Source: Lama glama (taxonomy: Eukaryota). Taken from it: a stretch of DNA of 64,000 nucleotides. Of the stretch, positions 1,925 to 30,385 are shown in pieces; position 1 is the first letter of the stretch, and each line of letters begins with the position of its first letter. The stretch spans positions 1,426,001 through 1,490,000 of the forward strand of contig JAPYYK010000086.1 in NCBI GenBank assembly GCA_028534125.1. The letters are read 5' to 3'. A program made the translations under genes and the position numbers. The notes beneath the pieces are model-generated. The model was not told the DNA's origin and ran no database searches. It saw only the letters and a program-made list of their open reading frames with translations.

Positions 1925-2115
1925 GGGGAGGTTCCGGGTCCAGCTCCATGAGCAGGGGTGAGATGAGCCTGGCTGAGGTTCAGTGCCACCTCGACAAGGA
2001 GGGCGCCTCCAATCTGGTCATCGATCTCATCATGAACGCGTCCAGTGACCGAGTGTTTCATGAAAGCATCCTCCTGGCCATCGCCCTCCTGGAAGGAGGC
2101 AACACCACCATACAG
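1925..2115 (+). CDS. ITPR1: ITPR1 internal coding exon (window exon 1): [63 protein letters not shown]
   Basis: Acceptor ttcttag at 1924, donor CAG|gtagga at 2116. Translation is recognisable IP3R1. 191 nt, phase 1 to 0. Confidence 0.97.
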
Positions 2116-12480: not shown

Positions 12481-13699
12481 CCACCTCCCAGCTCTTCATA
12501 GCTGGTACTTAGTTAGGACTTGTAATGAGCCAAACACTTGTCACCTCGAGGCTAAGTGACGTGCCCAAAGCGGCCCCACTGGGGCTGGCGGCGCTGGGAT
12601 TGGAAACGAGGTGCTCTGGCTCCAGACCTCCTGTCCCTGACCAGCACCCTACACCTCCTGCCAGCCTGGGGCCGACTGAGTTCTGAGCCTGATCCTTCCT
12701 CCTGAGATGGGCTCTTCCAGGCCTCCCTGCCCTCCCATACTGCTGTCAGTGGCACCCCCCATGCAGAGGCCGGACCACCATGGTCCCTGTCCTCACAGCC
12801 TTCCAAGGAAGGCAGAATCCATAGCCGCATTGATGAAATCCGCTGGCGCCCCGCCTGGTTCCACCCTCACGCCCGCGCTCATTGTCCTACGGCTGCACCT
12901 GCCGTGGGCCTGTCCCTGGCTGTGTACTCAGATCCCTCTGCTCCGTGTGGGACGTGCCCACTTGCCCTTTTCCTGGCACGTTCCCTGAGCCCTGTTGGAA
13001 ATGCTGCCTGCTCGAAACCTCCTCTGGATCCCCTGAGGCAGAGGCGATCTCTCTGTCTGGGTGGTTCATTGACTGTCGTAATCACCCCACTTTCAGTGGA
13101 GGCTCGCTGTAAGACCCGAGGGGGCAGAGATGAAGTCCGCCTTCCCCCCAGCCCCACAGAGAGGCCTCAGCTGACAGGAGGTCGGCCTGTGCGTAGCGAG
13201 CAGGGCAGGGACTCCTGCTCTCAAGCGCGACAGTGCATGGAAAGCACTCAGCTCGGGATGGTGCCTGATATGCCGTGCCATCGTGGCTCATGGTTACTTT
13301 TGTTGGTGTGTCTTCCTCTCCTCCCCCTCCACCCACCCAACGGTGTGGGCTCTTCCCAGGTCAGGGCTCTGTCTTACCCCAGCGCCTGGACCGCAGTGGG
13401 TGCTCAGTCAGTGTTCCCGGAATGCATGGAAGTCTGGACCCTGTGTGGCCACCATGTTACGTCAGCCTTCTTACCCTTTTGTGAACAGAAACCTGAGGAT
13501 GTGAAACATGAAAATGTGTGATCAACAGCCACCCCCTTTTTAAAGGGACGCCTTCTTCAGGAGCAGGAAGGAGTTCCGTTTATCTGAGCACAAGGGAAAT
13601 CTGTAATGTCAGTTGGGAGAAATCTTTTGATGCCAGAGATACTTGGTGGCGACTTTGGTCTTCTTTTCTTCTTCACGGTCACTATAGCAGTTGGTAATA

Positions 13700-13930
13700 A
13701 TAACCGAAATCAGAGCGCTCGCCTGCCAGGAGCAAGGCTGCGTGCCTTCTCTGCATGATCTCTCTTACTCTTCGTGCTGGTCCTGGTGGGCAGGTAGTGC
13801 CTGCACCCCTTTTTGCTCAGCGGGAAGTAGAGGATCTGAGAGGTCAAGTTACTTGCTTAGGGTCACACAGCTAGCTGGCACTTGTGCCAGGGTTTGTTTC
13901 CTGCAGAGCCTGGGTTCTCAGCCTCTCTGC
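13700..13930 (-). mobile_element. MIR SINE
   Basis: ctgagaggtcaagttacttgcttagggtcacacagctag. Confidence 0.65.
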
Positions 13931-14599
13931 AGTGCTGCCTCCTGTATAAGAAGCTGCCCCCAGTCCCCCTCTGGCACAGGCCCCTCCCTGGGGACCGAGG
14001 AAATGGGCGGTGCACCCTCTTCGAGGGCCTGGCTTCTGTTGGCTGGGCACTTGAGAATCTGTGACTTCACTTTGTTCCTCTTCAGTCAGTGGGCTCATTG
14101 TGCAGGGCGGTCTGCCATCCAGAGAAATCCCAGGTGGCTTGTGCGCTTGGTGTCTTTGCTTTGGTTCTATCACCGGCTGGTGAAGGATGGAGGATGGAAC
14201 TGTGAAAGACTTTACCTTTCGGGCTGGGCATTTGTCAAATAAAAATTATATGTCCTGTACATGTCGCTTCACCTCTAGTGGGTTCCAGGATCTCAGGTCT
14301 ATGAAAGTTCATGGCAAGGAAACTCTCTTGCATAACTTCCTCTCCATGGAGACAGAGAGCGAATCATTTAATTAGGGCTCTTAAGAAAAGTTTGATTATA
14401 TTACTCACAATTTTTGGTTTTCACTTGCATCTAAAGAAGTATATGTACTTTGGTATATAATGCGAAGCTTGTTAGATCTCCGCTTTTGTCCATTTTGCAT
14501 GGAGAAGCTCAGTGCACCAGATTCTCCCCATATTTGAGTCTTTGGCAGGTTGCAGAGTATGTATGTTTTGCAGAAGGAAGAGGCTGGGACTTTGTGCCT

Positions 14600-14770
14600 T
14601 TATAAAGTGCCCATTATGGGGCAGACACAGGGCCTGGTGCTGCTAGGCACCTTATCTGGACTAGGGGAGATAGCCCCAATGACAGATAGGGAAACTGAGT
14701 CTCAAAAGATCAGGGAGGTCTTGCCTAAAGTCACTGGTTAGCAGAGATGAGATTTGAACCCAGATCTCTT
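14600..14770 (-). mobile_element. MIR SINE
   Basis: acagatagggaaactgagtctcaaaa...cttgcctaaagtcac...gagatttgaacccagatct. Confidence 0.75.
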
Positions 14771-16592
14771 TCCCCTAATAGTCTCTCGACTTTTTTCTCA
14801 TGCTGGACAACCTTGAAGTCTCTTGGGTCCAGAGCAGGGAGCAGCTCTGGGCTCTACATCCACCGATGTGAGGTGCTGTACCTCCTCCAGAAGTATCTGT
14901 CTTGTTATTGTTGGGAGTGAGTGGGCAGCCCTGATCATTTGATCTGAGAAGCAAGTACTCACTGCTTGGTTATGCAGTGAATTCTAAGAGTCGACTTAGG
15001 AACCACACAATGGAAGCATGCTCAGTTTTATAATAATGTATAAGTGTGTCTTTAGTTCTCACTGCTGTCCTTTGCATGAGTAGCTTTCTCTGGTCAGGGG
15101 TGAACTTGGCCCTGGTGGATGGGAGGCTGTTGCTCAGCTCTGTTTCTCTGCGTTTTCTGTGATCCATGTTGGGGGAGCAGAGGGGTAGGGGAGGGAAAGC
15201 TAGGGTGCCATGCAGATAGCTGTTGCAAACCCCTGTACGATTTCCAATTAGTGGTTGCATGTGTGACGTGTATGCCTGTCTTATATTTACAAGAGGAAAC
15301 ATCCCGTTTAATTTTATGTTCACACCCAAAACCCAAGTGTTAAGAGAACATGGTGTTTTAACACTCCCTCGGTTATCAGCTGCAGAGCGGAGGTTCTATA
15401 TTGTCACATACAGTTTTCTGAGTGTGTTTCTACATTTGTCACCTGGCAACATCGCTACCTCGGGACACGAAGCTGCGTCGGTTCCTACCAGATCCACACT
15501 GTTTATACTGTCAAAGGTTGAGCCCGTTGTCCTCCTAGGAATTTAGAAGAGGAGCAGGCCCGGGCTGATGGGGCTCGGTTGAGAGACGGGTTGATGTGCT
15601 TCCATGGCTGACCCAGGACCAGGGGTTCCATGGGGGGTGATGACTGGTCCTGCCTGCATTGATGCATTACCGTGTGGTGGGCCACCTGCCAGTTCTGATA
15701 AGGAAGGAAACCCCATGGCAGGGATGCCACAGTACCCCTTGCTGGGGTCACCCTCTGAGCTGCGGATAGCCCCGTGGGGTCTTCTGTGTAGCTGGTAAGA
15801 TGCACTGAAAGCTCTGTGCTATAGAATCTGCATGCCTCGTGGGGCCTCGGGTGATCACACCTTCAGGCTGTCACAGCCTCCCCCACCCATCCCGTGTGAT
15901 TAACCCCGTGCCTTGAGGATATTTGCCTCTGAAACCCTTGCATCATATGTTTGAAAATCCTCTCGGTTGAAGCTGCATGTTCAAAGACTCAGAAAAAGCT
16001 TACTGAGACCAAGGGCATGGAATTCTCCAGCACCTGTGACATTTCTTGAAAAATACTGGAGAGGGGAAAGTTCCCATGGTAACAGCTTTCAAAAGGCGTT
16101 TCGTGGCATCAGTAGATGAGACAGGATATCAGAGTAATGAGGCTTAGCAACGTATCCTATAAGCACAGACTCCTTTACAGCCACCTCCTGGTGTCGACGC
16201 CAGAGCAAGGGCCTGTCCAGAAGGCCCGGGAGCGCTGGGGGCTCTGGCCAGGTCGCGCTGCACGACAGGGCGCTCCGTCCATGTTCCCCTCTGCAGTTCT
16301 CACTTCTGTCGGCCTCTCTAAGGAGGAGGTCTTGCCATCCACTGGACTCGTACTGTCTTGCCTGTTGAGAAAGAAATAGACAACTGAGTATGCCTGGGGG
16401 TGTTTAGAAACCACCAGTCAGCTTCAAAAGTATGTATTTCGAATGCTCCGACCTCCTTTAGAAAAACCCCTAAAAGCAGCCACTGATTTGGTTCAAATGG
16501 TTCTTTGCTCTTGGCTGTTAATATTATTCACAGCAGCATCAGATGTCCGGTGAGAAAACCACAAGATTCCTTAAGGTTTTATTTCGTAGCAA

Positions 16593-16672
16593 GTGTGTGT
16601 ACACATATACATATATACACACACACATACACATACGCATATACATATACACACCCATATACACACACATAT
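16593..16672 (+). repeat. Compound (CA/TA)n microsatellite
   Basis: Alternating purine-pyrimidine tract seen directly. Confidence 0.9.
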
Positions 16673-16842
16673 TACTACTGGAGGAGGACTTGACCCTGAG
16701 GGTTTGGAACTTGGCCGATCCTCCTGAGTCCCCTTCACGTGGAACTCTATATCCTGCTCTTTAAACTTTAAGACGATCCCTGACTGGCTGGAAGTCCTCA
16801 ACCCGCAGGCCCAGGAAAATGTTTCAGAAAAAAACAAGGTCA

Positions 16843-17062
16843 NNNNNNNNNNNNNNNNNNNNNNNNNNNNNNNNNNNNNNNNNNNNNNNNNNNNNNNNNN
16901 NNNNNNNNNNNNNNNNNNNNNNNNNNNNNNNNNNNNNNNNNNNNNNNNNNNNNNNNNNNNNNNNNNNNNNNNNNNNNNNNNNNNNNNNNNNNNNNNNNNN
17001 NNNNNNNNNNNNNNNNNNNNNNNNNNNNNNNNNNNNNNNNNNNNNNNNNNNNNNNNNNNNNN
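16843..17062. other. Assembly gap (220 N)
   Basis: Run of n. Confidence 1.
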
Positions 17063-17571
17063 CAGACTGGTTGCCATGGTGTTCTTTAATTCCCCTGTCT
17101 CTCAGCGATCTCCCTCCCCTCTCCCCGACTCCTTCCTCTCCCCCCACTTTCTTTTCTTTTCTTTCTTTTTTTCCCAATCTCGAAGCTTCCTTGTTTCTCA
17201 CACCTCACCCAGGATTCTTGGAGCTGTCTCCAGAGACGGAATCTTCTCCTTTCCCTCTAAGAGCTCCCCATTGTGTCGTTCTAGGACATCAGAAGGGTTT
17301 TGGCTAAAGTGTCTTTTCCCCCACCCTCCCTTATTTCTTGTCCTTGGACTTTTTTTTTATTATTATTATTACCAGTCCCTCCACTATAGGAGCCTAACCA
17401 GAGGTCTTGAAGTTCACTCTCTGTCCTCGGATTGCCTGCAGACGGGGTGGGTTCTGTTACCAGTCGGGCAGACAGTGGCTCTGCCCCTCAGGGGAAGGGC
17501 TATGTGCATTTCCCTAACCCTCCTGTGTGCCCTTGCTCTGGGTGGGATGACTTCTCCTGTCTCACCTAGCG

Positions 17572-17581
17572 CTTTATAAAG
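17572..17581. promoter_or_regulatory. TATA box in perfect palindrome CTTTATAAAG (candidate antisense lncRNA core promoter)
   Basis: Reads TATAAAG on both strands. -30 spacing to a minus-strand TCA at 17550-17548. Confidence 0.5.
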
Positions 17582-18118
17582 TACAGCCACATGAAAACAA
17601 GAGAACGTGTTTGTCCCACAGTGACAACTCCTAGAGCTTTGGCTACATCTGTTACGTGAAGGTGGCAGGTTGAGATTACTCACCCTGCATTTAAAAAGAA
17701 AAAAAAAAAGGTCTGCTCCATCCTATTCTCAGCAGGAAAGCAAAACTGTCCTTCTGAGAAGCTCCCCTGTGGCAGCCCCGGGAGTGCCCACCTGCACCCT
17801 GGTGGTCTCATGCTTTGGGTTGTTGGCCACATCCCCACGAGAGCAGAGGCATTACCAGACACGAGTATGGAGGTTATAATGCAATGTTCTTAGTAAAGAA
17901 AAAGTGGTTCCCATGAGGACAGGCTTAAAAAAACAGAAAAGCCGAAACCCACCCCTGCCTTGCCCAAGAGTTGTGCAATTCTTAACAGCAGTAGCCTGTT
18001 TGAATAATCAAAGGCGAGCTAACTTCCCCTTAGTAACTTCTGTTAGAGACATCTGCATAAAATATCCCCGGATTCCAGACCGAGAAGGTAACTTTTTTTT
18101 TCCCTCTGAGTAACTGGA

Positions 18119-18128
18119 GGGACTTTCC
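18119..18128 (+). promoter_or_regulatory. NF-kB site GGGACTTTCC
   Basis: Exact match to the canonical Ig-kappa/HIV-LTR kB decamer. AP-1-like TGAGTAA at 18107-18113 is adjacent. Confidence 0.6.
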
Positions 18129-19049
18129 CTTTGGAACTCTTCCAGCCGAGCGAACCTCACGGTGGAGAATCTTCTCTCATTGGAAACTGCCAGCGGCTCG
18201 AGTCTGGGCGTGGGAGCATTAAAGACACCTCGCGCCCAAGCTTGGACCCTGAGCCTCTGAGAACCTACGTGACATTCACAGCTGGCTTTGCCCCTCCTTT
18301 TCACAGAGGAATCTATGCCCACGTGCGCTTCCTGAGTCCTCTGAGTTCCTTTTTGAAAGTGTCAGAGCCTCTCTTGATGTTTCTAGCAGTTTTCCCTTGC
18401 CTGGGTTTTAAACTTGTCATCAAGATGTCCCAGACGCCAAAGGCGATCCCCCTAGAAACCATCTGATGTCTTCAAGCGGCTTGTTTCCCTTTGAATTCAG
18501 GACTTAAGAAAAATTATATTGCTCTTGGAAGAGGCTTTGTTTCAGTTGCCCTCACCATACGGTGTTTGAGAAATGTGTTTTTATTAATCTCCTTGCAACA
18601 CAAGCGCACAAACTGTTCAGCCCAGAGCTTTTAGTTACCAAGTCAGGTTCTGAGGTGGGAGGCCCACCAATAACTGTGCTTCCTGCCCCAAGGCTGATAA
18701 TACAGGTGTCAGCGGGGCCAGAGTGGTTGATGGTTAACTAGACGGATTAGGAGCCCCAGCCAGCCTGAGCCCATCTCCGCGGCCTGTGTGCAGACCCGAG
18801 CAGCCTCTGAGAGGCGAGAACGCCACATCAGCCTCCTTCAGCTGGTCTTTGGCATTTGGCACTGTCCCCGTTTGGCGAGACTTTGCGCTTTCACAGAGAG
18901 GGATCTTCTGGTTATTGAGTTAAACTTCAGCTGCCAGAGATGCAAACCTCGACTCGACTTCAGTTTTTCAGGGTTGCCCCTCCTTCGGGACTGTTGTGTG
19001 TTCATTAGGAGATCAGGTGTTTATGGAGGTGCCCGGCCCCCAGTGGGGG

Positions 19050-19450
19050 CACCACGATACTGTCAGGGATGAGGTGAGATCATGGGTCCTGCCTTCAAGG
19101 TTATATAGTCCAGCAGGGGAAATGAATCATAAGCCAGTTAACAATTAAATAAGTAAACTGGGGGAAGCGTGAAAAGGGAAGCTACCAGGGTCCAGAGTGT
19201 CGTGGAGAAGCCCCTGAGGGTGGTCAGGGGGGCCTTCTCTAGGGAGGTGCCATTTAAGTCCAGACCTAGCAGGTGGGAAGAGAACCAGTCACGTGAAGAA
19301 CAGAGGGCAGGAGTGTGCAGACAGGTTGGCATATTGCAGGAGCCGAAGGAGGCCACTGTGGTTGGAACGGAGCCCTGGGGAGGGGCGGGGGAAGGGAGCA
19401 GGGCGTGAGATGACCGCTCGGCCCAGGTAGTGCACTTGTCACCAGGTGAG
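19050..19450 (-). mobile_element. L2 LINE fragment
   Basis: ggtcctgccttcaaggttatatagtccagcaggggaa...gtggtcagggggccttctctagggaggtgccatttaagtccagacct. Confidence 0.65.
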
Positions 19451-22400
19451 AGGCTGGCCGGGGTGATCTCTGCGGCCCCTGCCAAGCCCTGCTCAGTGCT
19501 TCTAAAGGGCACCAAGTTGGCTCGGGCTGTGACCTGCTTGGATACACGTGACCAGCGCCAAGACCATAGTATATTAAGCAGCACTTACACAGACGAGTGC
19601 TGTGTGATTTCATCCCGCCACCTCCATCCATTTGGCCATCTGTATGTTTTACTGTCAGATCCAAAGGATGTTCTGTGCAGCCATATGGAAGCTACCTGAT
19701 GGGCCAGTACCCAGAGACGTGGGCCCGTGGGGTGGGGAGAAGTGAAAGTCCTGTGACCTGCCCTCTGGGGTGCAGGCTGGGGCTGAGATCTGAGAGCTGG
19801 CCAACTGAGCCGAGGACTGAGGGTGACGGTGGCCCTCCCTCAGGAAGACACTCCTTTGCCTGATGTTTTGCTATTTCCAGCCCGTGACCTTGCCCCCGGC
19901 AGGCCAGAGTATATTTATTTCCCCTTGGATGCTGTAGTCGAGTGGACCCATCAGAGCTAGGTTTGTTGAGAGTGGGGATGAGAGAGTGTCTGGTATAGAA
20001 CAGCTACCAGCGCCGGCCCTGTGCGGGCTTTCCCCGTTACCGCCTCTCCGTCCCACAGCCCCACGGGTGGCTGTTACCCTCCTCCTGCCTCCGTGACAGC
20101 CGAGGAGACTGAGGCTGCAAGTTCGTCGATGCCCTGCCCACAGCCACCCCGTTCCTCAGCCACCCCGTCTGCCTGTGTGTACCCTGCGGAGCGTGCTGAG
20201 GGCTGAGCCCGCTCTCTGGGCCCCTGCTGCTCCCTGTGTAAACACGGCCTGTAGGTGTGCAAAGAATTCTAACTGATGTGGACAGAAAGCTCAAGTTGGA
20301 GGCCCTGAGGAACCTTGGTGCTTTTCGGGCAGGAAAAGTTGGTCAGTGTTGATGGATTGGCCCTCAGGTACCCAAAATGGAAATGAGACCAAAGATCAAA
20401 GGTCTTGCCCTCCGATGCCCATGTCAGGCCTTTCTTGGTAACACAAGGGAGCCGGCTCTATGCAGGGGACCCACCTGCACCCTCCCTGGCAGAGGCCCAG
20501 TGTGCATTTCTTGGTGACAGGTTTCCCAGCACCTCGTGTCTTGCTCTTTTCAGGTCTCATGATACAGGGTGGGGCCTCACTGAGAAGGCTTCTGCCCTCC
20601 CATCACAGATCCCACGGCGAGTCTGTGGGCACAGTGATGCAGGACCTCAGAGTTTCCTATGAACCCCCAGGAGGCACTTTTTGCTGAATCATAGAATCAG
20701 CCCCGGAGGGCACCGTCGGAGGCCAAGTGCCTCACCAGCAGCCCCGGACACGCACTGGAGAATGATTATCATCTTTTTCTTCTAGTTGAGTAGATCTCGG
20801 GGACCAAGACTCTAAACCCTCCCTGAGTGCTTTCACACGAGTCCGTCCTGAGGTCTAAGCGCAGTCTTGTCTGCTACACAGTGCCTTTCTTTTTTTTTTT
20901 TTTATAAGCCCTGTGTTGACTTGAGTAACCAAAGCACCTTCTTGCACTTGAAGAAGATTCCAAGGAGGCCCCTGCCACATTCTATTTCCTGTTCCACTGG
21001 TCGTGGTTGTTTTTTTCTGAAGCCTCCTTTGTTTCCCTGTCTTTTGCTGGGAGAGACAGATGGCTATGTCCATGCACCCCACAGAAGACGCTGGCCTTTG
21101 GCCTCTGTAAGGAGGTTTGAGAACTGAACCGAGAGAAAATTTGGAGCCCACTTCTTGTCCCTGGGTCAGAGGCCTGACCTCCCTCCCTGAAATCTGTGTG
21201 ATTTCACTGTCACATATTGCTAGAGATGTAACTGCTGACAGTTTACCTACACATATAGTTACTTTGTAAGATAATGCCTGTAAACTTTGTTTTTTTTAAA
21301 AAAAAGGAAGTAGAATTTGTTGCTTGAGATGTCATTGATGAGTATGTGAGAAGCTGTTAGCATCCTGATCCACACGGGGGAGGCGCTTACCAGGTAGGGC
21401 AGACTTTCCCAGCAAGAGCTGCTTCTCGTGGGGCCTGGGAGGCAGGAAAGGAGATGTGTGAAGCTCTCAGGTCTCAGAAGAAAAGTGATTCTTAGGAAAC
21501 AGATTGGACTTGGCTGCTTGCCAAAAAAATGAAACAAATTCAACTCGAGAAGCAGCTTGAAGATCCACTGCTTTGGTCTTGACCTTGCAGCTCAGGCCCT
21601 TCCCTAGAGCCCAAGGGCCAGATGAGTTTGAGTGAGGTTCTCCTTGTCCTCCAGCTTGCTCTCAGGCCTTGGGCATCAGCACTGAGCAGAAGGCAGCCTG
21701 GCAGGGCAGAGGAGTTGAAACATGATGTTGATCTGTGGCTTGTCAAGAGATGGCTTTCCGGTTTGGACGAGGTGGGAGCTCTTTTCAGAGGCATGAAGTT
21801 GAAATGTGGATGCCTTTCCAGCCCCTCCTTGCTTCGCTTCGTCACTTCCTTCTTTTCTGCTTTAAAGTTTCTATTATTTCTGACCTCGTTAAGGCTGGTG
21901 GCATCCTCAGAGAGATGGATGAGCTGATAACTTCCAGGTGTTTACTGGTTGAAACCCACCAAACCTTGCTAAAACATGTCCTCCTTAGAGCGAGTGCTAA
22001 CATACACAAGGGGAGTGGTTGGTACTTACTGCCCGCTTCCGTAATTATCATGCATTTCCTGATGTCATGAATAGTTGGAAATATTGAGAAAAAATCACTC
22101 ACGTTGGAAGACTTGGGACTGTCCGAGAGGACGGTCTGACACCAAGCTTATGTTCTGCCGTGGGTAGCGTAAACTTTGAGAAGTGGAAGCCAAAGTATGG
22201 AAGCAAAAAGATTTCTGTCTGTGTCTGAGGGCACCTGAATGGCTTCTGTAACGAGTGAAATTCCAGCTGGACTTGTGTGTTAACTTCCTTCGTTGTGACG
22301 ATTGCTAGGAATTGCTCTTTGTTGTGTTTTTGCCGTCACTTGGCGGGCAACCTTGACCTACCCGTACTGGCTGGAATTGTTCGTCTTTGGATGTTTGAGG

Positions 22401-28455: not shown

Positions 28456-28636
28456 CACTCCTTCTTCTGCCGGTTGACAGAAGATAAGAAGTCAGAGAAA
28501 TTCTTCAAGGTCTTCTACGACCGAATGAAGGTGGCCCAGCAAGAAATCAAGGCGACGGTGACGGTGAACACAAGTGACTTGGGAAATAAAAAGAAAGATG
28601 ATGAGGTGGACAGGGACGCTCCATCCCGGAAGAAAG
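28456..28636 (+). CDS. ITPR1: ITPR1 exon (window exon 2): [60 protein letters not shown]
   Basis: Acceptor ggcag at 28455, donor AAG|gtaaat. 181 nt. Encodes DEVD (28600-28611), the type-1-specific caspase-3 site. Confidence 0.98.
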
Positions 28637-30131: not shown

Positions 30132-30385
30132 CCAAAGAGCCTGCGACACAAATAACAGAAGAGGTCCGGGATCAGCTCCTGGAGGCCTCTGCTGCCACCA
30201 GGAAAGCCTTCACCACCTTCAGGAGGGAGGCCGACCCCGACGACCACTACCAGTCCGGGGAGGGCGCCCAGGCTACAGCAGACAAGACCAAGGACGACCT
30301 GGAGATGAGTGCAGTCATCACCATCATGCAGCCCATCCTCCGCTTCCTGCAGCTCCTATGCGAGAACCACAACCGGGACCTACAG
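30132..30385 (+). CDS. ITPR1: ITPR1 exon (window exon 3): [20 protein letters not shown]...[27 protein letters not shown]
   Basis: Acceptor ttccag, donor CAG|gtgagg. 254 nt, phase 1 to 0, in frame with neighbours. Contains the RIH-associated domain start ([12 protein letters not shown]). Confidence 0.98.

Follow-up and report, generated by a model that had tools for sequence, protein, structure and literature searches.

From position 17973 to at least position 15648, the minus strand of an ITPR1 intron in Lama glama appears to be orthologous to human EGOT (eosinophil granule ontogeny transcript, NR_004428, hg38 chr3:4,749,192-4,751,590), a reading to which we give a probability of about 0.97 from sequence homology. 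All positions refer to the window, the whole 64-kb stretch of DNA that was analysed. A sequence-only reading of this DNA had named a probable EGOT orthologue from a chain of promoter, splice and poly(A) motifs on the minus strand, with a start at 17548, a donor at 17208, an acceptor at 16362 and an end near 15290. The ordered homology to NR_004428 bears out its identification, and its strand is correct, since the human EGOT pieces all match the minus strand; the 5′ half of its gene model has to be redrawn.

Homology to human EGOT

The human reference was NR_004428 as printed in Table S2 of PMC6471868, which by our own count is ~1,460 nt long without its A tail. Three pieces of this RNA, lying more than 600 nt apart, each found one place in the window, in order and on the right strand. 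Human nt 1-29 matched 17973-17945 (-) with 3 mismatches (26/29), and human nt 1340-1360, the target of an shRNA in PMC6471868, matched 15668-15648 (-), also with 3 mismatches (18/21). Both were the sole matches in the window, and for either piece 0/100 shuffles held one.

The third piece was the exon junction. A 40-nt motif (human nt 633-672) was split at every position and tried on every GT/AG pair that the host intron offers. With 33/40 identical, the top placement was a split after nt 645 that uses GT 17372 and AG 16362, and the runner-up reached 31. Since the split was chosen freely, it agrees independently with the exon-1 fragment described in PMC6471868, which ends at nt 645.

The remainder looks colinear with the human RNA from nt 1 to about nt 1360 by eye. 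Within it, human nt 921-1056 and llama 16083-15948 are identical at 115/136 positions without a gap (85%; hand count), an upper figure because the block was picked for looking best. The comparison is with one other species, represented by the human RNA, and was made mostly by eye outside the matched pieces. Intron DNA that evolves without selection should still be alignable from one mammal to another. Exact-pattern scans of metagenome contigs for orthologues in other mammals returned 0 matches.

HGNC, which judges by synteny and sequence similarity, treats mouse Egot as an orthologue, and the llama locus is one more such case beside mouse Egot and the other placental orthologues. The similarity consists of the identities above at three ordered places; synteny, viewed over one ITPR1 intron, is seen in the position of the EGOT matches on the minus strand in the middle of the host intron, antisense to ITPR1.

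Genomic context

The 64-kb window carries the 3′ half of ITPR1, read from its plus strand. Two consecutive IP3R1 exons (Table 1) enclose a host intron of 26,340 nt (2116-28455), in agreement with the 26-kb ITPR1 intron of the sequence-only reading, and in protein comparison IP3R types 2 and 3 score far below type 1 for these flanking exons. More ITPR1 coding exons on the plus strand start at ~28456, 36329, 37973, 40314, 42789, 43940, 46893, 51760, 57207 and 61339, and another ends near 30385. The exon at 28456 also has a 75% identical match at G000:C19:15,539,731-15,539,883, which is likely a paralogous ITPR gene.

Genome searches returned a second copy of the locus, 100% identical and inverted, on the same scaffold (G000:C916804, 4,532,028 bases). 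When stretches of this scaffold were compared pairwise from the ends to the centre, 7/7 pairs, covering a sample of ~36 kb of each half, were identical in inverted orientation without mismatch, and the halves meet at a 100-N run in the centre (2,265,965-2,266,064). The 4.53-Mb scaffold is likely a scaffolding artefact in which one 2.27-Mb sequence is followed by the reverse complement of itself, and a true inverted duplication of the EGOT locus was rejected on the mirror identity of the sampled halves.

Rose and Stadler reportedly claimed a sense-strand ITPR1 cassette exon in the EGOT region. Candidates for such an exon, scored with the N run left out, rank 7, 10, 50, 58, 62 and 72 of 82 in the host intron. 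On the sense strand (+), a donor of 8.3 bits follows 16549 and could pair with acceptors at 16297, 16462 or 16534; these candidates rank 7, 50 and 72 of 82, not above background, and all three resulting exons would shift the ITPR1 frame.

Revised gene model

A two-exon layout with splice sites at the human junction is obtained with the donor at 17372 and not with the donor at 17208. The exon 1 end at 17372 is identical to the human one at 10/13 positions, a level reached by 3 of the 1,202 GT sites, among which it is the sole one near the acceptor; for 17208 the figure is 5/13. The exon 2 start at 16361 is 23/27 identical to human and is the only one of 2,027 acceptors reaching 18, and the spacing of exon 2 is kept within 1 nt over 715 nt. 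Like human EGOT, the llama locus lies antisense in an ITPR1 intron, with ordered similarity from nt 1 to ~1360, GT/AG at the junction and comparable exon sizes (Table 1). Unlike it, the llama has a longer intron (the human length being the 2,399-nt span less the RNA length), an exon 1 shorter by ~45 nt and an AATAAA just inside the intron.

Measured against this model, the two-exon structure and the acceptor of the sequence-only reading stand, as the human junction motif picks the same AG. Its start has to be shifted, with human nt 1 mapping 425 nt upstream of 17548, and its donor is replaced by a GT 164 nt upstream; the expected alignment with the human junction is thus seen at the acceptor and not at the donor. 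Because the human junction maps to 17372, the 340-nt exon 1 it proposed combines 176 nt from the 3′ end of the exon-1 orthologue with 164 nt of intron and would cross AATAAA 17361. Its small intron of ~850 nt, said to include a gap, compares with 1,011 nt for the orthologous intron; the N run there does not mark a gap in the assembly, since both genome loci carry letters at that place with the length unchanged. The spliced length of ~1.4 kb does agree with human in total, by coincidence.

Table 1. Coordinates of ITPR1 exons, EGOT-orthologous parts and candidate signals in the window
Feature	Position	Strand	Remarks
ITPR1 coding exon (3′ part), 5′ of the host intron	1960..2115	+	52/52 aa identical to IP3R1 residues 1788-1839 of 5gug_A; donor CAG/GTAGGA at 2116
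Next ITPR1 coding exon, closes the host intron	28456..28636	+	60/60 aa identical to IP3R1 residues 1840-1899 of 5gug_A
Putative EGOT exon 1 orthologue	17373..17973	-	601 nt (human 645); 5′ end by nt 1-29 match, 3′ end by junction motif, middle by eye
Putative EGOT intron orthologue	16362..17372	-	1,011 nt (human ~940); GT 17372, AG 16362
Putative EGOT exon 2 orthologue, human nt 646-1360	15648..16361	-	714 nt (human 715)
Perfect NF-kappaB-type site (presumed), GGGACTTTCC	18119..18128	+	candidate; 146 nt 5′ of the position that matches human nt 1
TATAAAG with TCA	17548..17578	-	within putative exon 1; no more than an internal-promoter candidate
TATAAAG	17578-17572	-	present
TCA	A at 17548	-	30 nt from the first T of TATAAAG
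Donor of the sequence-only reading, TGG/GTGAGG	17200..17211	-	GT at 17208; 6.85 bits; in the intron of the orthologous model
Branch-point-like TACTCAG	16384..16390	-	present; position fits a branch point, candidate only
Acceptor AG	ends at 16362	-	12.7 bits
ATTAAA	15312	-	first AWTAAA after the acceptor
Candidate poly(A) signals	15290..15647	-	TATAAA 15507; AATATA 15402; CATAAA 15318 overlapping ATTAAA 15312

The donor at 17372 is weak (5.72 bits, rank 78 of 1,202), and seven GT sites in 16420-18000 score higher. The AATAAA at 17361 (17361-17345, minus strand) closes an (AAT)n run 11 nt into the intron and precedes a run of A. If the weak donor is skipped, an unspliced short RNA of ~630 nt could end there; the site could also serve for internal oligo(dT) priming. 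An imperfect TG/TA microsatellite occupies 16579-16665 of the EGOT intron. The donor at 17208 is a possible alternative donor within the orthologous intron.

EGOT RNA is probably made and spliced in the llama. The competing explanation that survives best is that the EGOT-orthologous DNA here amounts to an intronic enhancer or a neutral remnant and no more, any RNA being an unstable by-product and the splice signals leftovers. This would fit the weakness of the donor, the AATAAA that follows it after 11 nt and the fading, by eye, of the similarity in the final 100 nt of the human RNA, and the reviews, too, class EGOT as enhancer-derived. Folding of the whole exons against 20 shuffles each likewise gave no signal (z -0.70 and +0.83), with the reservation that single-sequence folding cannot test local conserved structure; conserved secondary structures in EGOT are reported in the reviews. 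We nevertheless consider the remnant explanation improbable, given that both splice dinucleotides are kept at the human positions, that the acceptor ranks 4 of 2,037, that the exon-2 block is 85% identical without a gap, and that the reviews describe conservation across placentals. A strong acceptor would be expected to decay if unused, which supports its use.

Chance level of the motif chain

All six minus-strand motifs of the sequence-only reading are present where it placed them (Table 1), and the spliced product of its model would be 1,412 nt. Scored with weight matrices, the acceptor at 16362 ranks 4 of 2,037 minus-strand AG sites in the host intron, and the donor at 17208 ranks 39 of 1,202 GT sites. 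TATA followed by TCA at 28-33 nt occurs as 5 pairs in the window (4 minus, 1 plus); 5/5 extend to a full chain of donor, acceptor and poly(A) signal at an acceptor cut-off of 9 bits, and 2/5 do so at the score of acceptor 16362. With the 16362 site excluded, 706 of 1,156 arbitrary minus-strand starts complete the chain at a cut-off of 9 bits; the number falls to 284 when 11 bits are required and to 0 when 12.69 bits are. The motif chain thus commonly arises by chance, and the acceptor alone stands out. It is the homology to the human RNA, not the motif chain, that identifies the locus as EGOT.

The same figures bear on whether the TATA start at 17548, the donor at 17208 and an end near 15290 could describe the main form of the RNA, which we regard as highly improbable. 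The llama TATAAAG is nearer to the consensus than its human counterpart (TATAACG at nt 417 of the human RNA, by eye), the spacing to TCA is kept (30 vs 29 nt, the human A being at nt 446), the donor at 17208 outscores that at 17372 (6.85 vs 5.72 bits), and ATTAAA 15312 is the first AWTAAA 3′ of the acceptor; yet human exon 1 ends at 17373 rather than 17209 (10/13 vs 5/13), the human RNA starts 425 nt farther upstream, the exon 1 of this form crosses the AATAAA at 17361, and comparable chains arise readily by chance.

Promoter elements and 3′ end

Upstream of the human-matching 5′ end stands a perfect GGGACTTTCC, which we take to be an NF-kappaB-type site. It is the only exact copy in the window; 37/100 shuffles contain one somewhere in 64 kb and the site was noticed after the fact, so it is notable for its position alone. 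CACGT-type elements are seen by eye near 18270 and 18325, also in the stretch 18119-18330 upstream of the mapped 5′ end.

The TATA/TCA arrangement inside exon 1 is common to human and llama and could be an internal promoter. That EGOT has a second conserved core promoter within exon 1, made up of TATAA and an initiator-like TCA 29-30 nt behind it, seems to us rather unlikely on this sequence evidence.

For the 3′ end, the last 100 nt of the human RNA have by eye no clear match here, and would end at ~15550; the llama 3′ end may therefore differ. The human RNA ends on CATAAAAT, and the same 8-mer stands at 15318, so that an end at ~15290 may be orthologous across an insertion of ~250 nt. The candidate 3′ ends are ~15490 and ~15290, the latter being the end of the sequence-only reading, which is possible.

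Coding potential and searches for RNA signals

The sequence-only reading found no credible ORF, and we concur. The longest ATG ORF of its spliced model is 57 aa, a length reached by 202/300 shuffles, and none of four splice models rises above its shuffles. That EGOT RNA encodes a small protein is hardly credible: the ATG ORFs of 50-57 aa in the four models are equalled in length by 189 to 245 of 300 shuffles per model, and the 57-aa ORF has its start close to the RNA's 3′ end.

An EGOT model exists in Rfam. At the gathering score, Rfam gave 0 hits in the window and 0 in both genome loci. Nine weak hits in 13000-20000 were all far below threshold; 7 of them are miRNA models on the TG/TA microsatellite, where the best reaches 44.5 bits against a cut-off of 90.

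Shares of the words of 14800-16840 were compared over 24 listed sequence runs, the figures leaving out 4 raw-read runs: 0.33-0.38 for the 8 runs recorded as RNA (2 studies), 0.22-0.31 for 6 guessed to be RNA and 0.91-0.95 for 6 unlabelled runs. The share of 0.33-0.38 is close to that of exon 2 in 14800-16840 and was rejected as evidence, as the contigs are strandless and a related species or ITPR1 pre-mRNA would fit equally well.

Discussion

EGOT is already known, and the llama locus is a known gene in one more mammal. It was to be expected, because EGOT has already been reported across placental mammals: reviews place it in all of them, citing Rose and Stadler 2011 (Front Genet 2:69), who may already list the llama and these sites. 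A literature search on the evolution of EGOT start sites and splice sites yielded nothing useful.

In the reviews, human EGOT is a nuclear, polyadenylated RNA with enhancer marks, whose induction by RNA viruses and TNF runs through NF-kappaB; it is also reported to be hypoxia-induced. According to PMC6471868, it pairs with ITPR1 pre-mRNA, binds hnRNPH1 via nt 324-645 and raises ITPR1. Unpublished data cited in a review have EGOT depletion leaving ITPR1 unchanged, and because of these two accounts the function is disputed even in human. Further EGOT-related literature comprises PMC5820368, PMC5625025, PMC7503479, PMC13154789, PMC7073466 and PMC12025276.

A second antisense lncRNA in ITPR1 introns, BRRIAR, is described in PMC12777463. 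Compared by description, it is alike in being spliced, polyadenylated, antisense, enhancer-derived and linked to interferon signalling; unlike EGOT, it comes from another locus ~36 kb from human EGOT, has three exons and is poorly conserved.

For the llama EGOT orthologue we propose that Pol II would start near 17973 from an enhancer-like, NF-kappaB-responsive promoter at ~17970-18130, that the RNA would likely be spliced from 17372 to 16362, and that polyadenylation would take place somewhere from ~15490 to ~15290, the predicted product being a noncoding RNA of ~1.45-1.7 kb. Llama G-runs at 17617 and 17379 lie, by eye, at places matching G-runs of the human fragment 324-645. By analogy with human, we put forward only tentatively that this would be a nuclear, stress-induced RNA acting mainly in cis, either by pairing with ITPR1 pre-mRNA and binding hnRNPH1 via the G-runs of exon 1 or through enhancer transcription itself.

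Two cautions of a general kind come with this locus. Motifs that line up tidily from TATA through donor and acceptor to poly(A) signal can point to the correct gene and still give the wrong exon. Loci on the mirror scaffold would show twice, and any "inverted duplication" there is suspect.

If the internal promoter were real, it would give a shorter RNA with a 176-nt exon 1 spliced at 17372, which would be without the first portion of the fragment for which hnRNPH1 binding and a rise in ITPR1 are reported. If each promoter has its own product, this could explain why EGOT knock-downs disagree between cell types on ITPR1 and interferon genes. The gain from this locus lies in corrected exon boundaries for annotation and in another data point for the retention of the EGOT junction.
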